Assembly: GCA_030066715.1 (NCBI GenBank)
Contig: JASJBC010000045.1
Span: 1-33,821, forward strand
Origin: Acidimicrobiia bacterium
Lineage (GTDB): Bacteria; Actinomycetota; Acidimicrobiia; Spongiisociales; UBA5794
Direction of reading: 5' to 3'
Length of the DNA stretch: 33,821 nt
Positions 9,588 through 29,594 of the stretch are shown piece after piece; position 1 is the first letter of the stretch; every line of letters begins with the position of its first letter. Below the pieces are notes generated by a model that did not search any database, was not told the DNA's origin, and saw only the letters and a list, made by a program, of their open reading frames with translations. The position numbers were made by a program, and so were the translations under genes.

Positions 9588-10028
9588 TCAGGTGTCGGTT
9601 GTGGCGCAGTCGGGGCAGGTGCCGGTTATCGCAAAGTGCGTGGGGTCCACCTCGAATCCGGTGGTCTCCTGGAGCTGCGTGAGCCACTCGGAGAGGCCTG
9701 CCGCCGGCACTGCAGCGGTCGTTCCGCAGCGGTTGCAGACGACGTGCTGATGCGTTGCTTCAGACGCCAAGTGATAGACAGCCGCGCCATGCCCCAGATG
9801 ACTGTGGACGAGGAGGCCCGCCTCTTCGAGCGCGTCGAGGGTGCGGTAGACGGTCGATTGATCGGCACGTGCTGCCGGATCGGCTTGCACTTCTTCGAGT
9901 ATGGAAGCGGCGGTGAGGTGTTCGCTGTGCCGGCGCGCCACGATCGAGCAGACGGCACGGCGCGCCTCCGTGATCCGGAGACCCTGGTTGCGTAGGGCAT
10001 TGATGAGCGTCTCGGAGTCGATGTGCAT
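9588..10028 (-). CDS. Fur-family metalloregulator (Fur/Zur/Nur-like)
   Basis: 146 aa. N-terminal winged-helix DNA-binding region with LRITEARRAV. His-rich metal site HSHLGHG…HQHVVCNRCG, and a second CxxC (TGTCPDC) forming the structural Cys4 site. Classic Fur-family layout. Confidence 0.8.
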   Translation of the reverse strand: MHIDSETLINALRNQGLRITEARRAVCSIVARRHSEHLTAASILEEVQADPAARADQSTVYRTLDALEEAGLLVHSHLGHGAAVYHLASEATHQHVVCNRCGTTAAVPAAGLSEWLTQLQETTGFEVDPTHFAITGTCPDCATTDT

Positions 10029-10035
10029 CCGACGC

Positions 10036-11988
10036 CTACCGTAGGCGAGCCCGGCCCGGCATGAAGACCATGGTCAACGTCCGCCTCATGATTCTCGTGT
10101 CGAGCGCCATCGAGCGCTTTGCGACGTACTCCTCGTCGTAGCGGGTCCGCTCCGTCGCTGATATCTCATCCCGTCCCGATACTTGAGCCAGACCCGTCAC
10201 CCCTGGTTTCACGGTGAAGCGGATGCTGTCCCGGCCGATGATGTCGGCCTCGGCCGGCACCAGGGGACGGGGACCAACGAGGGACATGCGGCCGAGCAGA
10301 ACATCCCATAGGTTGGGAAGCTCATCGAGCGACAATCGGCGCAGCACCTTGCCCACCTTGGTGATCCTGGGGTCGTCGGCAATGCGAATGGTGGCGGTCT
10401 CGTTGTTCATCATCGCCTCTTCGAGCTGGGCCAGGTGCTGGGCAAAGAGCTCCTCGCCCCCGTCGGCGCGCATGGTACGGATCTTCAGCATGGCGAAGTT
10501 GCCTCCGTCCTTGCCCACTCGCTCCTGGCGGAAGAAGGCCGGTCCCGGCGAATCCAGCTTCACGGCGACGACGCAGACGACCAGGACGGGAAGAGAGAGC
10601 ACGAGCACGACGGCCGACACGGCGATGTCCACAGTGCGCTTGGCCAGCAGATATGCGGCGCCCGGAGCGCGGTCCGCCGCAGTTGGTCTGCTGATGGCTC
10701 CGATCGCGAGAGCTGCCAGCGCCACCGCCTCGCCGGCGATGAAGGACGTGGCCACACGCTGGAACGGATCACCGTTGGACAAGGCCAAGGCGATGACGGC
10801 AGCCGCAAGGCCGATCAGCCAGGAGATGCCGAGCACCCTGGGCTTGCCCTGGGCCACGAGAACCTGAGCAACGAACAGCCCCGACCCGGCGAGGACTACC
10901 CCGGCGGCGACGAGGGCGGCGGGCATCGCCTCGGGCCGGAACTCCGCTCCAAAGGCGACGTCCACAACCCAGGGCCCGACGAAGTAGCCGGCAAGGGAGC
11001 CGAGTACGGCCAGGCCGAGGCCGGCGAAGCCGATGCCGCGCGCCCATGCAGCAAGTTCCCTGCGCTCTTGGCGGGCGGCCATCTCGGTGAACGGCGGGAG
11101 GACGCGGGCAATGAGGTTGTAGCCGAAGGTGAGCGGGGCACGAAAGAGAGTGAACGTGGCGAAGACGACGCTGATCAGGGCCTGAGTGGCCCCGAGCATT
11201 GCCGCAACCACCGGACCGGCCAGCAGCAGTGCCTGCGACGCCGCCGAGGAGAGGACGAGGCCGCCGAGGAGCCCTTGGTCACCGACTGTCGCTGCGTCCT
11301 TCGCCGTTATGGCCTGCCGATCGACCGCAACTCTGCGGAACGGCCGCCACACCAAGGTGATGATCGGCCCGACAATGAGTGCGATCGCCAGCCCGGACGC
11401 CGAGGGACGCAGGGTGAGAACGAGGATCGCCACCAGCAGCCGCAGCAGGTTGGCGCCGCCGCTCGCATATCCGTACTCCCGGAAGCGTCTCCAGCCTGCC
11501 AGGTGACCACGTGCCGCCGCATAGCCGGCGTGCATCGCAACAGTCAACGCCGTGAAGGCGATGAACCGGCGGTCACCGTTGAGGAATCGATCGACACCGA
11601 GCCAGGCGAAGAGGGTTGCCGCAGCAACGGTGCCGCCGGCGAGCCACCAAGCCGTGCGAGGCAACCCGGAGCGCTCGGGATCGAGGGTGAGGCGCCGCAC
11701 CACGAGTTGCTCAACGGGCAAGAGGAACACAATGAAGGTGAGGAAGTGGATCGTCAGCAAGACGGACACGGGCGCAAACGCAGTTGCTCCCAAGGTCCGA
11801 CCGCCGATGATCTGGTAGGCATAGGCGGCAAGCCCGGCCAGGAGGCTGCCGGCCAGGATGTGTCCTGTGCCGTCCTCCGACAACCGCGCAAAACGGGTCC
11901 GGGTCGATCCGGCTTCCTGTTGGGGTATGGGATCCGAAGGGTCTTCCAGCATATCCAGTGTGACGGGCGCGTCGCCTGTCCACACCAT
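10036..11988 (-). CDS. Fusion protein: N-terminal polytopic flippase-like (MOP/Wzx-like) membrane domain plus C-terminal bacterial sugar transferase (Bac_transf, undecaprenyl-phosphate phosphoglycosyl transferase) domain
   Basis: 650 aa. Residues about 40-440 form roughly 10-12 TM helices, Gly/Ala-rich. Residues about 450-650 carry a single TM followed by the Bac_transf signature (…DELPNLWDVLLGRMSLVGPRP…KPGVTGLAQVSGR…). The PGT domain call is high confidence. The identity of the N-terminal domain (flippase-like) is inferred from topology only. Confidence 0.75.
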   Translation of the reverse strand: MVWTGDAPVTLDMLEDPSDPIPQQEAGSTRTRFARLSEDGTGHILAGSLLAGLAAYAYQIIGGRTLGATAFAPVSVLLTIHFLTFIVFLLPVEQLVVRRLTLDPERSGLPRTAWWLAGGTVAAATLFAWLGVDRFLNGDRRFIAFTALTVAMHAGYAAARGHLAGWRRFREYGYASGGANLLRLLVAILVLTLRPSASGLAIALIVGPIITLVWRPFRRVAVDRQAITAKDAATVGDQGLLGGLVLSSAASQALLLAGPVVAAMLGATQALISVVFATFTLFRAPLTFGYNLIARVLPPFTEMAARQERRELAAWARGIGFAGLGLAVLGSLAGYFVGPWVVDVAFGAEFRPEAMPAALVAAGVVLAGSGLFVAQVLVAQGKPRVLGISWLIGLAAAVIALALSNGDPFQRVATSFIAGEAVALAALAIGAISRPTAADRAPGAAYLLAKRTVDIAVSAVVLVLSLPVLVVCVVAVKLDSPGPAFFRQERVGKDGGNFAMLKIRTMRADGGEELFAQHLAQLEEAMMNNETATIRIADDPRITKVGKVLRRLSLDELPNLWDVLLGRMSLVGPRPLVPAEADIIGRDSIRFTVKPGVTGLAQVSGRDEISATERTRYDEEYVAKRSMALDTRIMRRTLTMVFMPGRARLR

Positions 11989-17960: not shown

Positions 17961-19013
17961 TCAGCTGGGGACTGGTCTTGCGTCGAGCCAGCGGATCCCC
18001 GCAAGCACCCGACCGCTGTAGTCGTTCCGCAGTGCGAGTTTCCGGCCCGCGTCCGGTGGAGTCCTGACGGCACCCGCCCAGCCGATCATCCCCCGGATCT
18101 GTATGCGGAGTGCCAGCGCCGCGGTCCGGGTTATCTCGTCGAGGCCCGCATCTACGCCGTAGCGCTGTAGCGATGACGCGTATCTTGCGAGAAGTTGGTC
18201 GGGATCGATCGGAGCGTCGTTGCGGAAGGCAAGGCTGACCAAGAGCACTGCGACGTCAACCGCAGGCGGCCCGATCGCTGCGCCCGACCAGTCGAGCAGT
18301 ACCGGACTGCCGTCGGCTCGCCACAGTATGTTGTCGAGGTGCGGGTCTCGATGCACCCACGACGCCGGCCCGAGCGCCAACACCTGAATCGCGGCGGTTG
18401 CCTCGTCGCTGCAGGCGGCCAGTCGTTCGACGATTTGCGCTGTGTAGTGATCCGGATATCGCTCGCGGGCCTTCTCGAGACGGTTGCTCCACCGTTCCGG
18501 TGCCCAGGCGGCAGCGGACCATCGGTCGAGTTCGATAGGGGCATCGGAAGCGGCGTCAAACCAGGTGGTGGCGTGGAGGCGGGCGACGATGTCGATCAGG
18601 TCTAGGGCTTGGGCAAGTGTGCAGCCGGCCAGGTCGTCGCCTTGCGTGGCTTGCGGGATGTCCTCCAAGAGGATCACTCCCTGGCCCTGGGAGTCGAGGT
18701 ACGACCCGTATGAGGCCGGAATCACGCCGGCGAGCAGTCGCTCGTTGTGAGCCCGGAAGGTGACGGCGCGCCGTATCTCGTCCTCAGCTTCGATCTTGGC
18801 TACGAGCGTCGGGGTGGCCCCGGCAATGGTCGGGGCGAAGAGCCGGTAGACGCGACCGCTGAGACCGAACTCGCCGCCGATCCGCTCGCCCCGCACCGAC
18901 GCCACTGTCCCGTCGGTCCAGACACGTGAGCGTTCGAGCTGGGTGTTCAGCCAATCGACGTCGAACTCGTTGCCGTCGCTGGGAAATCGCATGGGTGGAG
19001 TCTGGTCGCGCAC
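17961..19013 (-). CDS. Phosphotransferase (APH/choline-kinase-like) family protein
   Basis: 350 aa. Brenner motif VHRDPHLDNILW (HxDxxxxN) and downstream DW (LLDWSGAAIGPPAVD), characteristic of PF01636 aminoglycoside/small-molecule kinases. Substrate unknown. Confidence 0.7.
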   Translation of the reverse strand: MRDQTPPMRFPSDGNEFDVDWLNTQLERSRVWTDGTVASVRGERIGGEFGLSGRVYRLFAPTIAGATPTLVAKIEAEDEIRRAVTFRAHNERLLAGVIPASYGSYLDSQGQGVILLEDIPQATQGDDLAGCTLAQALDLIDIVARLHATTWFDAASDAPIELDRWSAAAWAPERWSNRLEKARERYPDHYTAQIVERLAACSDEATAAIQVLALGPASWVHRDPHLDNILWRADGSPVLLDWSGAAIGPPAVDVAVLLVSLAFRNDAPIDPDQLLARYASSLQRYGVDAGLDEITRTAALALRIQIRGMIGWAGAVRTPPDAGRKLALRNDYSGRVLAGIRWLDARPVPS

Positions 19014-19060
19014 CGGTCACCATGCGAGCGGGGACGCGGAGGTGCTGCTCAAGGCCCATG

Positions 19061-19090
19061 CGGCCATCTTCCCGACGTATCCTTCCAGAT
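19061..19090. repeat. Copy 1 of a 30-35-bp dispersed direct repeat (GCGGCCATCTTCCCGACGTATCCTTCCAGAT)
   Basis: Identical at all but 2 positions to copy 2 (20209-20240), and closely similar to copy 3 (20897-20925). Lies in the 98-bp gap between the HEPN stop and the phosphotransferase start, at the boundary where GC content drops. Confidence 0.55.
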
Positions 19091-19111
19091 CTAGGTGGTT
19101 CATTGAGGGAG

Positions 19112-19516
19112 TCAGGCCTGGGCTGCCAGTTCAAGGAGACGCTGCATGGCGCGGATTGCTCGTTTCGCTTCTGTCACCGTTGGGTCGGTTTGCTCGTACT
19201 GCGCCTTGTTCTTTGCGGACAGCAGAGTCGCTAGCTCCCTTCTCGCAGACGTCCCAAGGTCGCCCGCCTGGCCGAGCAGGTCCAAGGCCTGTTGATGGTC
19301 ACTTCCGGCAGCGCGCTGTCCAAGGCGTCGACAGCAGATCGCGTCGGCAGCGGCGATGCCGGCCAGCACGGCATTGCTAACCGCTGCCGACCTCGCTGGC
19401 CCGTCTGATGCGAAGGGATCCAATTCGGCTAGTTCGGCGAACGCTTTGGCCTGTTGATGCCTCTGCGCACCGTCTTGCCGATCGCAACGCCTGGTACGGG
19501 ACGTCTTCTTGGCCAT
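19112..19516 (-). CDS. Putative HEPN-domain protein (toxin partner of the upstream nucleotidyltransferase)
   Basis: 134 aa, all-helical, with conserved-looking R/H positions. Its start overlaps the stop of the upstream wHTH-NTase gene by 1 nt, the classic MNT-HEPN operon order. No canonical Rx4-6H motif is obvious, so the family call is tentative. Confidence 0.5.
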   Translation of the reverse strand: MAKKTSRTRRCDRQDGAQRHQQAKAFAELAELDPFASDGPARSAAVSNAVLAGIAAADAICCRRLGQRAAGSDHQQALDLLGQAGDLGTSARRELATLLSAKNKAQYEQTDPTVTEAKRAIRAMQRLLELAAQA

Positions 19517-20106
19517 CAGGTGTTGTCCGTCGCCACGAGGTCGATACGTTCCGCTTCGATGCTGGCAAAGAGGCTCGGAGATGTTTCTGCTAATCGCTCG
19601 AACTCACTCGTCGTGTAGTGAAGCAGGTTGCATTCGTTGCCTGTCAGCCGGTTGATCCGCGGCGCAATGTCCTGCTCTCGCTCCCTCGAGGATGCGTCGT
19701 CACTCCAGACGAGCACGATGTCGATGTCGCTCTCCTCGTTGGCCGAGTTGGTTGCGAGGGATCCAAAGAGGATTGCCTGCCGAACTGTTGGAGCTTCCTC
19801 GACAATGATTGCTCCCATAGCGTCCAGAAGCTGTCTCCTCAGATCCACGATCTGTAGCACGAACGGCGCGAGTATGTGTTCTCTGTTCAAGGTGTTGAGC
19901 ACAGCGTTACCTGCTGTGACCTGGGTAACCAAGCCGTGTGCCGCAAGTTCGTCCAGAGCGTTCTGCACGCCCTGCTGGCTCACTCTTCGGTGGGCGAGTC
20001 GCATGACTTCACGCCCAGACAAGGGCTTGGTTGTACCCGCGAGGACCTCAAGTACTCGACCGGCGAGACTCGGGATGAGCGAGGTAAGGGGATGGCGGAG
20101 GTTCAT
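19516..20106 (-). CDS. wHTH-fused minimal nucleotidyltransferase (MNT/MntA-like antitoxin)
   Basis: 196 aa. N-terminal winged-helix (…LSGREVMRLAHRRVSQQGVQNALDELAAHGLV…). Polymerase-beta-type NTase motif ILFGSLATNSANEESDIDIVLV (GS-x9-13-DxD). GC about 55%, versus about 68% in flanking genes. Confidence 0.7.
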   Translation of the reverse strand: MNLRHPLTSLIPSLAGRVLEVLAGTTKPLSGREVMRLAHRRVSQQGVQNALDELAAHGLVTQVTAGNAVLNTLNREHILAPFVLQIVDLRRQLLDAMGAIIVEEAPTVRQAILFGSLATNSANEESDIDIVLVWSDDASSREREQDIAPRINRLTGNECNLLHYTTSEFERLAETSPSLFASIEAERIDLVATDNT

Positions 20107-20153
20107 ATGCCAAGCATAGTTGGCATATGACCATTTGAATAGGCATTTGCCAA
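20104..20153. promoter_or_regulatory. Cluster of TTGGCA/TGCCAA inverted half-sites overlapping the MNT start codon (candidate autoregulatory TA operator)
   Basis: CATATGCCAA-gcatag-TTGGCATATG is a perfect 10-bp inverted repeat that includes the ATG. A third site …GGCATTTGCCAA follows 20 nt further upstream, preceded by TTGACT-like -35 sequence on the minus strand. Confidence 0.35.
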
Positions 20154-20208
20154 CTCAGCTAGTCAATCTACTGCCAGGAACGTCGGCTACCACACCTCGG
20201 CGCCCGTG

Positions 20209-20240
20209 CCGCCATCTTCCCGACATATCCTTCCGGATTG
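20209..20240. repeat. Copy 2 of the dispersed direct repeat (GCCGCCATCTTCCCGACATATCCTTCCGGATT)
   Basis: See copy 1. Located between the TA module and the zinc-ribbon membrane protein gene. Confidence 0.55.
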
Positions 20241-20386
20241 CGGTGGTGGGATGAGGGCAGACGGGACGGGCAACTGACGCGTGGACCATTGCAGAGGGAG
20301 CCTTGTTCCTGGTGCGTCATTCTGATATGTCTGCAGTGGCAACTGTCGGGCTGCCACGCGGCTGGCAGACCCGGGGAAAGGACTTC

Positions 20387-20800
20387 ATGACTGATCCCGT
20401 TGTCGTGTGCTGGAGCTGCCACACCAATGTGGACGCGGGTCTTTCTGAGTGTCCTCGCTGCAGGGCAGGGCTAGGGCCTGAAGATCGTGGATTGAGCGTC
20501 GGGGACCACCAGAGTGAGCAAGAGCTCTTGAAGGCTAGGTCGGGGGTCGGCGATTCATCCGTAGCGAACCATGTAGGAACCGAGCGACCATTCGAGAAGA
20601 TAGTGATTGGTTGCATCATCGTCTTGCTGATGGTTGGTGGGGGCACGTTTCTCGGCATGTTGTTCGCGGGCTGGATAAGTGGTTGTGAATCCTTCGGTTG
20701 TCTTGCTCCCGCCGCGATTGGTGTGTTCCTCGGAGGTGCTGTTGGTCTTGTGTGGAGCATCACCATCCTGGTCCGCAGGAACTCCCGCCGAGCCAAGTAG
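20387..20800 (+). CDS. Small zinc-ribbon membrane protein (CxxC-x14-CxxC + 2 TM), function unknown
   Basis: Start chosen at ATG 20387 (MTDPVVVCWSCHTNVDAGLSECPRCRAGL…), preceded by GGAAAGGA RBS. C-terminal two hydrophobic helices (IVIGCIIVLLMVGGGTFLGMLFAGWI…AAIGVFLGGAVGLVWSITILV). Basic tail RRNSRRAK. GC about 57%. Confidence 0.5.
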   Translation: MTDPVVVCWSCHTNVDAGLSECPRCRAGLGPEDRGLSVGDHQSEQELLKARSGVGDSSVANHVGTERPFEKIVIGCIIVLLMVGGGTFLGMLFAGWISGCESFGCLAPAAIGVFLGGAVGLVWSITILVRRNSRRAK

Positions 20801-20896
20801 TGCCGGCGCCTGAGTTAGGCAGATGGTGGAAGCGGCGGTCTGTGCAACCGACGGCGGGTTTCCTGGATGAGAGTCTCCGGGTTCTCAAGCACCAGT

Positions 20897-20925
20897 GACC
20901 TTCCCGGCATATCCTTCCAGATTGG
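20897..20925. repeat. Copy 3 (more diverged) of the dispersed direct repeat (GACCTTCCCGGCATATCCTTCCAGATTGG)
   Basis: Shares the CTTCCCGRCRTATCCTTCCRGAT core with copies 1 and 2. Marks the right edge of the lower-GC segment. Confidence 0.45.
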
Positions 20926-21084
20926 GGTCGCGGTCTAGCGAGGTGTCCGCTCGCTGAAGCCGGATAATGAGCGCCGGTGGGTGCGCGATATCGCTCCCGG
21001 CCGTGAGTGCTTGGGTACCGGATCAAGCGCTAAGGACTGCGAGGTGGCCACGGCTCCGTTCCCGTGCGAGCCTGCGTAGCGCCG

Positions 21085-22005
21085 CTACTGGTCCTCATCC
21101 AGCTTGCTGAAGGCGGTTGCGACCCGCTCGAGAAACCACCGCACCCCTGGCTCGTCCCCTTCCGCCGCGCTGCGGAACAGCGAAAGCCCCATGGGGGGAA
21201 GGTCGAAGGGTATCTCGCGATGGTCGAGGTGAAAGGCGATCGCTGTGTTGCCTATGGCCACCGACGGCACGGTGAGCAACAGGTCCGTCTGGGCGAGTAT
21301 CGGCGCGGCCATAGAGAAGGTAGGAACCATGGCCCCTACTACACGGCGAATGCCGAGCTGAGAGGCCCGCCGGTCGATTGGGCTTCGCCCGCGAACGCCT
21401 GACGTGTGAACCCGCAGGTGGGGGTAGTCCGACCACGCCTCCGCGGACCAGTCGGCGAAGGCCGGGTGGCCTTCGCGGCCGTACACGGCCCAGGGCCAAG
21501 TCCCCAGCGGCTGACCACGTAGGTCCTCATCCCGGATGCCATCGGGCGCGATGAGGGCGTCGTAGCGGCCCTCGGCTAGCTCCCGAACCGCTGTTGCGGA
21601 GTAGGGCGCCAGCTCGACGCGGATCCCGGGTGCTGCATTCCTCACGTCCTGCAGCAGTGCCGGCACGAGTGAGGCGATGAAGTCGGGTGCAGCCAGACGG
21701 AACGTGCGGGTCGATGTGGTGGGTTCGAAGGGCTCCGGAGTCGCGATCGTGCGCGCCACTTGCTGGAGCACCCGGGGCAGTGTTTCCGCTAATCCCTCGG
21801 CGCGAACGGTTGGGCGCATGCGCCGCCCGTCCCGGAGTAACAGTTCGTCGTCGAACAGTTCGCGGAGGCGCTTGAGGGCGTGGCTGACGGCGGATGGGGT
21901 GAGGTCGAGCCTTTCCGCGGCACCGGTGACGCTTCGCTCCTCCAGCAACACATCGAGGACGACGAGCAGGTTGAGGTCAACCTCTCGTAATTGAATATCA
22001 TTCAT
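21085..22005 (-). CDS. LysR-family transcriptional regulator
   Basis: 306 aa. N-terminal HTH (…LNLLVVLDVLLEERSVTGAAERLDLTPSAVSHALKRLRE…). C-terminal periplasmic-binding-protein-like effector domain. Divergently arranged with a small membrane protein gene. Confidence 0.85.
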   Translation of the reverse strand: MNDIQLREVDLNLLVVLDVLLEERSVTGAAERLDLTPSAVSHALKRLRELFDDELLLRDGRRMRPTVRAEGLAETLPRVLQQVARTIATPEPFEPTTSTRTFRLAAPDFIASLVPALLQDVRNAAPGIRVELAPYSATAVRELAEGRYDALIAPDGIRDEDLRGQPLGTWPWAVYGREGHPAFADWSAEAWSDYPHLRVHTSGVRGRSPIDRRASQLGIRRVVGAMVPTFSMAAPILAQTDLLLTVPSVAIGNTAIAFHLDHREIPFDLPPMGLSLFRSAAEGDEPGVRWFLERVATAFSKLDEDQ

Positions 22006-28831: not shown

Positions 28832-29263
28832 ATGATGACGTCTGTTGCCCACGATGCCGCCATAGCGACAGAAGGACCACTGATGAAACTCGATACCGTC
28901 ATGGTGCGGGATGCCTGGGCGACGGGCACCTCGACCGTTCTCACCATTGCTGCAGCCCCCTTGTTGGGGGGATGGCTCGGCGTCTCAGGCTGGATCGTCG
29001 CTGCAGTCGGGCTGGCACTCGTCCCCTGGACGGTTTTCCTCGCAATGACGGCCCGCCAGGATCCGCTGATCAAGTGGCGGACGGCGGTCATCGCCGCCGG
29101 GAACCTGGCCTGGGTGGTCGCCGCGGCGGTCCTCGTCATCGGCTACCCGGGCGCCATGTCGACCACGGGGCGCTGGCTGCTGGGCCTATTCAGCCTCGTT
29201 GTTCTCGGCTTCGGCTTGCTGCAGACGATCGGGCTGCTGCGTTGGGGAGATCCCGGCGCCTAA
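28832..29263 (+). CDS. Hypothetical membrane protein (about 4 TM), divergent from the MmyB-like regulator
   Basis: 143-aa ORF whose C-terminal 110 aa are hydrophobic helices. The start may be the internal MKLDTVMV (28883). No motif recognised. Confidence 0.4.
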   Translation: MMTSVAHDAAIATEGPLMKLDTVMVRDAWATGTSTVLTIAAAPLLGGWLGVSGWIVAAVGLALVPWTVFLAMTARQDPLIKWRTAVIAAGNLAWVVAAAVLVIGYPGAMSTTGRWLLGLFSLVVLGFGLLQTIGLLRWGDPGA

Positions 29264-29357
29264 AGGATCATTTGCGGGGTAGTCATGTTCACGTGGGCGC
29301 CCGAGTCACAATGACCGCAGCGGCGTCCACAACTGGGACGACTTCTAGGATGTGCAG

Positions 29358-29594
29358 ATGAAGCTGAGCATTGAATACTGCGCTGTTTGAGGGTATCGCG
29401 ACCGTGCCGTGAGCATGGCAGGCAAAATCCTCGAAGAGTTCGAGCACAAGATCGAAGACTTCACGCTCATCCCGGGACGTGGTGGCGTGTTTGAGATAGT
29501 CGTTGGTGACGAGTTGGTCTACTCGAAGAAGGAGACCGGCGAGCATACGGACTACGAGGCTGTGGCCCCGGCGATCCGTGCCATTTTCGGCTAG
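29358..29594 (+). CDS. SelW/Rdx-family thioredoxin-like protein with in-frame TGA at the CxxU position (candidate selenoprotein)
   Basis: Reading from ATG 29358 gives MKLSIEYCAV-TGA-GYRDRAVSMAGKILEEFEHKIEDFTLIPGRGGVFEIVVGDELVYSKKETGEHTDYEAVAPAIRAIFG. The Rdx/SelW hallmark IEYCxx(C/U)GY is reconstituted exactly, with TGA at 29388-29390 in the Sec position. The C-terminal …PGxGGxFEVxVdGELVfSKKE… matches the family. The ORF track only reports the part after the TGA (29409-29594). Confidence 0.6.

Follow-up and report, generated by a model that had tools for sequence, protein, structure and literature searches.

The question raised by this locus is whether an in-frame TGA triplet, lying within what otherwise reads as a single small gene, ends translation or specifies selenocysteine (Sec). 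In the 33,821-nucleotide stretch of DNA analyzed here (the window), the mechanical list of open reading frames holds a sole entry for the locus, a GTG-started ORF of 61 residues at 29409-29594. The original prediction had extended this frame upstream across the TGA to an ATG at 29358 and had read the whole as an Rdx/SelW-family selenoprotein, with Sec at the second position of a CxxU motif, that ORF calling had missed. The sequence reads as described: the ATG stands at 29358, the TGC codon of Cys8 at 29379-29381, the TGA (codon 11) at 29388-29390 and a TAG at 29592-29594. Translation from the ATG gives MKLSIEYCAV*GYRDRAVSMAGK...IFG*, and after the TGA the frame continues as GYRDRAVSMAGKILEEFEHKIEDFTLIPGRGGVFEIVVGDELVYSKKETGEHTDYEAVAPAIRAIFG up to the TAG. 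The elements of the coding region are the following.

29358..29594, plus strand: predicted full-length SelW-like/Rdx-family selenoprotein gene, 78 codons and a TAG stop, with Sec at codon 11
29379..29390, plus strand: redox motif Cys8-Ala-Val-Sec11 (TGC GCT GTT TGA), read directly and aligned with the CTQC of 3DEX and 2FA8
29388..29390, plus strand: in-frame UGA taken as selenocysteine, based on the conservation of TGA across loci and the use of UGA as a normal stop elsewhere in the window
29409..29594, plus strand: shortened ORF of 61 residues (59 residues if started at ATG 29415) reported by ORF finders and gene callers, from the ORF list

Judging from the comparative sequence evidence, it is highly probable that positions 29358-29594 encode a 78-residue SelW-like (Rdx) oxidoreductase of the thioredoxin fold, with an active site Cys8-x-x-Sec11 in which Sec derives from the UGA at 29388-29390. 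The original prediction is borne out in this respect by an end-to-end profile match and by conservation of the TGA across phyla, as well as by a hairpin at the canonical distance for a SECIS element, with covariation and frozen synonymous sites. The 61-residue ORF is an annotation artefact; gene callers cut the 78-codon gene down to a fragment of 59-61 residues because the in-frame UGA would encode selenocysteine. Orthologues are collinear from the ATG onwards and, within a few codons ahead of it, run into stops or unrelated sequence, which fixes the start at 29358.

Membership of the Rdx family, as had been proposed, is well defined. With Sec replaced by Cys, the 78-residue protein matches PF10262 (Rdx) with an E-value of 3.3e-20 and 72.5 bits (cutoff 22.6) over profile positions 2-73 of 74, a near full-length alignment, and the 61-residue fragment covers positions 19-73 only. 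Since the full Rdx match needs the part that precedes the TGA, the segment upstream of this codon is homologous to the CxxC/CxxU segment of the family, and the N-terminal CxxU redox motif of Rdx/SelT-SelW-SelH proteins is present as C8-A-V-U11. The protein also passes the TIGR02174 (CXXU_selWTH) model, with 59.7 bits against a cutoff of 34.2. The top-scoring NCBIfam model is NF041051 (SelTWH_Campy), matched with 68.8 bits over profile positions 1-68 of 70; this score misses the equivalog cutoff of 88, which leaves the window protein outside that equivalog and places it at the subfamily level only. A sequence search of the PDB retrieved Cys-type Rdx proteins (3DEX, 4e-10; 2FA8, 1e-8) and mouse SelW (2NPB, 1e-3), and in the alignments the CxxC of these structures sits on the CxxU, so that the TGA falls on the second redox residue. 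Overall, residues 2-74 are homologous to the Cys-type Rdx structures (3DEX SAV_2001, 2FA8 Atu0228, 2P0G and 2OBK) and to mouse SelW, with E-values from 4e-10 to 1.7e-3, although the bacterial structures are all Cys forms of about 105 residues and the mammalian SelW gene carries its SECIS element in the 3'-UTR. A thioredoxin-like fold is expected for the window protein from this homology, and its role is presumed to be that of a thiol/selenol oxidoreductase. The window gene hence belongs to the bacterial SelW-like (Rdx) selenoproteins, a long-known family.

The behavior of codon 11 in related genes is the main evidence on the identity of the TGA. A protein search returned 67 relatives, all of them 45-67 residues long and covering 54-79% of the query; all 67 are fragments that start after the TGA. 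At the nucleotide level, a scan of species-representative genomes, in which tblastn alignments run through the stop, yielded 64 related loci, and direct reading of codon 11 in these gave TGA in 62, TGC in one and TGT in one. The TGC belongs to a Nitrospiraceae locus (L058), the single Cys form, and the TGT to a copy with a decaying frame (L064). The loci originate from Acidimicrobiia/Actinomycetota, Poribacteria, Marinimicrobia, Gemmatimonadota, Planctomycetota and Deltaproteobacteria, the closest being those from Acidimicrobiia/Actinomycetota, with 57-87% identity. Most of them were retrieved with the peptide MKLSIEYC as bait, so that the set is biased towards a conserved N-terminus, and for this reason eight further loci were fetched through C-terminal truncated proteins alone. 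The TGA is present in all eight, the sequence ahead of the called start being M[KR][LV]SIEYCAx-TGA-GY, spelled with differing synonymous codons. Within the window's own clade (28 members), both the TGC of Cys8 and the TGA are invariant, and the peptide is conserved on both sides of the TGA in the presence of abundant synonymous change. The original prediction had deemed a chance stop at the redox residue unlikely and had suggested that orthologues be examined for TGC or TGA at this codon; the counts obtained (62 of 64 related loci and eight of eight unbiased loci with TGA) agree with that judgment. Elsewhere in the window UGA serves as the stop codon of seven of the 21 other genes tallied (14 identified by Pfam and seven by synteny with locus L065), from which it follows that the code is not reassigned and that recoding is site-specific.

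For a bacterial SECIS element (bSECIS), the original prediction had pointed to two hairpins downstream of the UGA while considering that neither was a textbook case. Three RNA elements have to be considered here.

29402..29418, plus strand: putative bSECIS upper stem-loop CCGUGC-CGUGA-GCAUGG, based on minimum-free-energy folds, the geometry of the published model and conservation
29387..29434, plus strand: possible, weakly supported extended stem-loop, in which a lower helix UUGAGGGU (29387-29394) pairs with AUCCUCGA (29427-29434)
29430..29444, plus strand: palindrome CUCGAA-GAG-UUCGAG (codons LEEFE), the second hairpin of the original prediction

The upper stem-loop spans 17 nt, begins 11 nt after the UGA and comprises a 6-bp stem with one G-U pair and a 5-nt loop that contains G29409 and U29410. 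In the published bSECIS model (PMC13188914) the loop measures 3-9 nt and lies 16-37 nt from the UGA, the upper stem has 4-16 bp, a G occurs within the first two nucleotides of the loop, as a rule with G or U after it, and the free energy does not exceed -7.5 kcal/mol; the same review notes that some bSECIS elements depart from this model. The window hairpin agrees with the geometry on every count, with a loop of 5 nt in which G and U occupy positions 2 and 3, a stem of 6 bp and a spacing of 17 nt; its upper stem alone (-6.9 kcal/mol) is just short of the -7.5 kcal/mol of the model, a threshold that is reached only with flanking pairs that are not conserved. Seen against the published consensus, with which the element agrees, the assessment of the region as not a textbook SECIS was too pessimistic. 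The first of the two hairpins originally put forward (UGCC/GGCA) was correctly located in the SECIS region but set in the wrong register, and its distance from the last base of the UGA is 15 nt instead of the 24 nt given. This register pairs in 76% of cells, with its outer pair broken in 13 of 20 sequences, and was rejected against the CCGUGC/GCAUGG core, which pairs in 100%. The resemblance to the minimal SECIS of E. coli fdhF (PMC8659212), in which a 17-nt upper stem-loop follows the UGA at 11 nt, bears G23 and U24 in the loop and has U17 bulged out, is close: size, distance and the adjacent G and U of the loop are shared, the latter lying at positions 22 and 23 in the window (counting from the U of UGA) and at 23 and 24 in fdhF. 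Unlike fdhF, the window hairpin lacks a bulged U, its 6 bp, one of them G-U, following one another without interruption, and its loop is CGUGA rather than of the GGUC type; SelB would be the presumed binding partner. A scan of the window at Rfam gathering thresholds gave no match. Bacterial SECIS elements are poorly represented in Rfam.

The full predicted stem-loop folds with -20.3 to -24.9 kcal/mol (z=-1.9), and its lower helix encloses both the UGA and the upper stem-loop. This helix is not conserved, alignment column 45 being C, A or G against an invariant G8, and was discarded as a part of the element. The palindrome over the LEEFE codons does exist, as originally stated, but starts 40 nt after the UGA and not about 50. 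Its arms pair in 89% of cells, without any mismatch in 15 of the 28 clade members, and it was not found in the other phyla sampled. Because bases of the 5' arm also belong to the 3' strand of the lower helix (29427-29434), the two structures are mutually exclusive. Given its absence from other phyla, this overlap and its location beyond the position of the upper stem-loop, the palindrome was rejected as a SECIS element; it is probably a by-product of coding. A terminator-like match on the minus strand corresponds to this same palindrome, inside the coding sequence, and was likewise set aside.

The conservation of the upper stem-loop was analyzed in the 28 clade members and in 39 sequences from other phyla. 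In the latter the equivalent hairpin is shifted 4 nt downstream relative to the window's clade. Its partners pair in 82.6% of cells, compared with 18-48% when they are slid, and five of its eight pairs present compensatory changes on both sides (45 cells), a covariation score that was reached in none of 500 shuffles. In the window's clade, by contrast with these phyla, the six core stem pairs are invariant and, as a consequence, no covariation can arise among them; the exception is an A-U/G-C switch in a pair that extends the stem. The clade is informative instead at synonymous positions. All 28 members use CGT for Arg16, against six different codons for Arg74; codon 19 is likewise xGC throughout and remains so through replacements among Ser, Gly and Arg; and codon 15 ends in C in 27 members, the single T preserving a G-U pair. 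The third positions of codons 17 and 18, in the loop, vary within the clade. Altogether, the three stem third positions all fall within the six of lowest variability out of about 71 degenerate codons (hypergeometric probability ~3.5e-4), and on codon usage the clade does show constraint at the RNA level in synonymous stem sites. The internal ATG at codon 20 (Met20) is also invariant in the clade, a consequence of its place in the 3' arm of the stem.

On this basis, a mechanism can be postulated. With the UGA in the ribosomal A site, the 17-nt stem-loop at 29402-29418 (loop CGUGA) would be bound by SelB-GTP-Sec-tRNA(Sec), and selenocysteine would be delivered at the UGA in place of termination. 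The product would then cycle between selenol/thiol and selenenylsulfide states, reducing a substrate.

Genes for the Sec machinery were sought in the window and in the collected loci. None of selA, selB, selC and selD is present in the 33.8-kb window; ARAGORN detected no tRNA-Sec in the window or in 70 loci, the window being devoid of any tRNA, and tblastn with approximate E. coli SelD and SelA queries gave nothing in the window or in loci L001-L064. The E. coli SelD query matched in L067 only. This selD gene, carried on a 2.84-Mb contig of a clade member (L067/L070), lies 9.4 kb from the SelW-like gene of the same genome and, although its sequence is partial, scores 292.9 bits on TIGR00476 (cutoff 125). 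It reads SHGAG-TGA-ACK, with the TGA at the position of the catalytic Cys17 of E. coli SelD, so that a genome of this clade holds a selenoprotein gene besides the SelW-like one. No selA, selB or selC was found within 10 kb of it. In Actinomarina, which belongs to the order Actinomarinales of the same class Acidimicrobiia, selA, selB, selC and selD have been reported in all 84 complete genomes, with about five selenoproteins in each (bioRxiv 10.64898/2026.04.03.716425). The presence of the SelW-like gene marks the source organism of the window, which its nearest relatives indicate to be most probably an Acidimicrobiia (Actinomycetota) bacterium, as a likely selenium user.

A screen of the window for further selenoproteins, combining an in-frame TGA, redox context and a hairpin, gave only the SelW-like gene and six off-frame artefacts. 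Pfam matches to 20 further ORFs of the window identify only ordinary metabolic, regulatory and envelope genes, including a Cys/Met PLP enzyme, ABC/CbiQ transport, a histidine kinase, a sugar transferase, LytR_cpsA_psr proteins, a Band 7 protein, an SDR, an APH-family kinase and a LysR regulator. Nearer the SelW-like gene, synteny with L065 locates ILVD_EDD, a Fer4 protein, ROK, PNPOx, DUF4342, an HTH_31 regulator, Amidohydro_3, an inositol phosphatase and LNT.

The region upstream of the start codon presents a further element.

29346..29351, plus strand: TAGGAT, a -10-like TANNNT hexamer and putative promoter, 6 nt upstream of the ATG

All 28 clade members carry a TANNNT hexamer separated from the ATG by 6-8 nt; no other offset between 0 and 39 shows it. 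A Shine-Dalgarno core is present in nine of these 28, versus an AGGAG-type core in 25 of 38 sequences from other phyla, and a promoter scan found no E. coli-type promoter with two hexamers. In Mycobacterium tuberculosis, where leaderless mRNAs are common, the -10 box is a TANNNT centred 7-12 bp upstream of the transcription start site and a -35 consensus is absent (PMC3898074). If it acted in the same manner, the TAGGAT at 29346-29351 would place the transcription start at or beside A29358. The TANNNT box, together with the lack of a Shine-Dalgarno core in most members, makes it conceivable, if somewhat doubtful, that the SelW-like mRNA of this clade is leaderless, and we extend the same tentative reading to the notion that the family may also be the 'most abundant, uncharacterised 78-aa selenoprotein' reported in Actinomarina (bioRxiv 10.64898/2026.04.03.716425). 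Were the message leaderless, the 5' end of the transcript would precede the Sec UGA by only 30 nt and the SECIS element by 44-61 nt, and the gene would be a naturally occurring instance of SelB-dependent recoding on an mRNA without a leader that is initiated by 70S ribosomes. Were the family the same as that of Actinomarina, the latter would gain a name and a fold.

Several other explanations may be put forward for the locus. The original prediction had named a recent TGC-to-TGA pseudogenization as an alternative, for which one transition-type change at the third position of a Cys codon in a Cys-type Rdx gene would suffice; Cys forms do exist, both in L058 (TGC) and among the PDB homologues, and one locus (L064) looks decayed. 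A recent nonsense mutation would nonetheless not leave TGA at the same codon in 62 of 64 loci and eight of eight unbiased ones across several phyla, nor a protein conserved on both sides of it amid synonymous change, nor a conserved hairpin at SECIS distance, and we reject it as having an almost negligible probability. It is very improbable, too, that the region holds two units, a 10-codon peptide (MKLSIEYCAV) ending at the UGA and an independent protein of 59-61 residues initiated at ATG 29415 or GTG 29409. The annotation style of all 67 database entries and the invariance of Met20 speak for such an arrangement, but the pairing of ATG 29415 in the stem accounts for the latter, no Shine-Dalgarno core is apparent in the 20 nt before this ATG, and the -10 box is placed for the upstream one. 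Moreover, the fragment would lack the first beta-strand and the CxxC/U motif, being restricted to profile positions 19-73, in a region through which the homologues of solved structure run continuously.

The two remaining explanations accept a single gene and differ in how the UGA or the hairpin is interpreted. Read-through without Sec, by a near-cognate Trp or Cys tRNA or by reassignment of UGA, with the hairpin merely stimulating it, would accord with the fact that Sec machinery was not seen in the window and with the known ability of post-stop hairpins to promote read-through. Only a very slight probability can be granted to it, since UGA is a normal stop for seven of 21 genes tallied in the window, the codon occupies the exact Sec/Cys redox site of a family with many Sec members, the hairpin shows SECIS-specific geometry with G and U in its loop, and a clade relative carries a Sec-type selD. 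Alternatively, the gene could be a true selenoprotein gene in which the hairpin at 29402-29418 is but a consequence of the conserved peptide RAVSM, with which it partly coincides, and the SECIS element lies elsewhere or belongs to a non-consensus class. The want of covariation inside the window's clade, the 4 bp of the hairpin still kept by the Cys-form L058 and the existence of bSECIS elements outside the model (PMC13188914) are all compatible with this idea. A peptide constraint would not, however, hold Arg16 at CGT in 28 of 28 members or preserve -GC in codon 19 through Ser, Gly and Arg while loop third positions vary, nor would it place all three stem third positions among the six least variable of about 71 (~3.5e-4), and it is also at odds with the covariation in other phyla and the exact 11-nt/17-nt geometry; it seems to us improbable. 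The reading as a SelW-like selenoprotein gene with its SECIS element at 29402-29418 is accordingly the one retained in what follows.

CXXU SelW-like proteins ranked first in abundance among the selenoprotein families of the Sargasso Sea dataset, where they were represented by 48 genes with SECIS elements of the bacterial type (PMC1088965, Zhang, Fomenko and Gladyshev 2005), and were later described as a bacterial selenoprotein family with few Cys homologues in Sec-using organisms (PMC1794560, Zhang et al. 2006). The window gene shares with this family its domain, the N-terminal CXXU, a length of about 75-80 residues and a SECIS element located directly after the UGA; the rarity of Cys homologues among close relatives and the abundance in environmental metagenomes are common to both as well. 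Nothing fundamental distinguishes it from the family, other than its belonging to an Acidimicrobiia-type clade whose members are all shortened in the protein database searched; with respect to the other phyla sampled, the SECIS element of this clade is 4 nt closer to the UGA. The locus adds no biology beyond that of bacterial SelW-like selenoproteins as described since 2005, with the leaderless architecture as a possible, modest extra. Its chief value is the correction of annotation, given that all 67 database entries are fragments of 45-67 residues without the catalytic CxxU. In a similar vein, many SelD entries in the databases are cut at their own Sec codon.

Every member of the Acidimicrobiia-type clade of SelW-like sequences (28/28) presents a TANNNT hexamer 6-8 nt ahead of the start codon and at no other place within 40 nt, as established by comparing the 25-nt stretches that precede the ATG in the window and in the loci of relatives L001-L023, L065-L067 and L069. 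A Shine-Dalgarno core is present in only nine of these 28 sequences, whereas SelW-like genes of other phyla carry AGGAG-type Shine-Dalgarno sites in place of the TANNNT box. Such spacing between TANNNT and start codon is what leaderless transcripts of actinobacteria typically show. The features referred to here and below are the following:

Window 29346-29351, + strand: TANNNT hexamer, 6-8 nt 5' of the ATG in the clade
L065 7656-9934 and L071 6815-9934: ABC transporter and FUR-family regulator block, upstream of the SelW-like gene
L058 10001-10219: Cys-form SelW-like locus of a Nitrospiraceae MAG, with TGC at the Sec position
L064 1553-1685: Marinimicrobia SelW-like copy whose Sec codon position reads TGT
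L067 1-628, - strand (L070 about 9940-10969, + strand; same gene): selD, with an in-frame TGA (SHGAG-U-ACK)

In close relatives, the SelW-like gene is directly preceded by genes for a Zn/Mn-type ABC transporter (ABC-3, ZnuA, ABC_tran) and for a regulator of the FUR family. This block was not found in the window when positions 29264-29357 were compared with L065 and L071, and the gene adjoining the SelW-like gene on its 5' side there encodes a small membrane protein (28832-29263). Elsewhere in the window, a region of about 2 kb (19013-21085) differs from the remainder in harboring no ORF of at least 200 aa on either strand.

The Tyr13 codon (window 29394-29396), two codons past the UGA, is TAT in 28/28 clade sequences, and the remaining Tyr codons in this GC-rich clade are mostly TAC. 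The invariant TAT may reflect a constraint on the nucleotides directly 3' of the UGA, acting either as stop-codon context or as part of the SECIS base. The SECIS itself was found in two registers (alignments A1 and A2): a proximal one, with a CGUGA or AGUUG loop beginning 17 nt past the UGA, in most Acidimicrobiia-type sequences, and a distal one, with a GUU, GUA or GGUCU loop beginning 21-22 nt past the UGA, in other phyla. In three loci that encode Actinomycetota-like proteins (L024, L068 and L073), the register is the distal one and the loop is GGUCU, which resembles the loop of the E. coli fdhF SECIS. The proximal register and an Acidimicrobiia-type SelW-like gene (81% identical) also occur in a contig labelled as uncultured Gemmatimonadales (L004, CAXMRC010000187.1), which may be mis-binned.

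The sole intact Cys form found, that of L058, retains 4 bp of the hairpin (GCC-AGUUU-GGC), due either to a recent Sec-to-Cys conversion or to the AASLA peptide dictating part of the hairpin. The Marinimicrobia sequence (L064) loses both similarity and frame beyond codon 12, and is probably a decayed copy.

In the selD gene of the clade relative (L067/L070), the in-frame TGA falls at the catalytic-Cys position of SelD, and is followed by a hairpin-rich fold. The gene call is cut down to 322 aa, and many SelD database matches are 322-329 aa long (87-90% coverage), which suggests that the same truncation is widespread. Truncated entries may likewise hide the SelW-like family from databases: the 'most abundant selenoprotein family' of Actinomarina (class Acidimicrobiia), described as uncharacterised and lacking UniRef90 hits (bioRxiv 10.64898/2026.04.03.716425), is equal in length (78 aa) to the SelW-like protein of the window and may be the same family.
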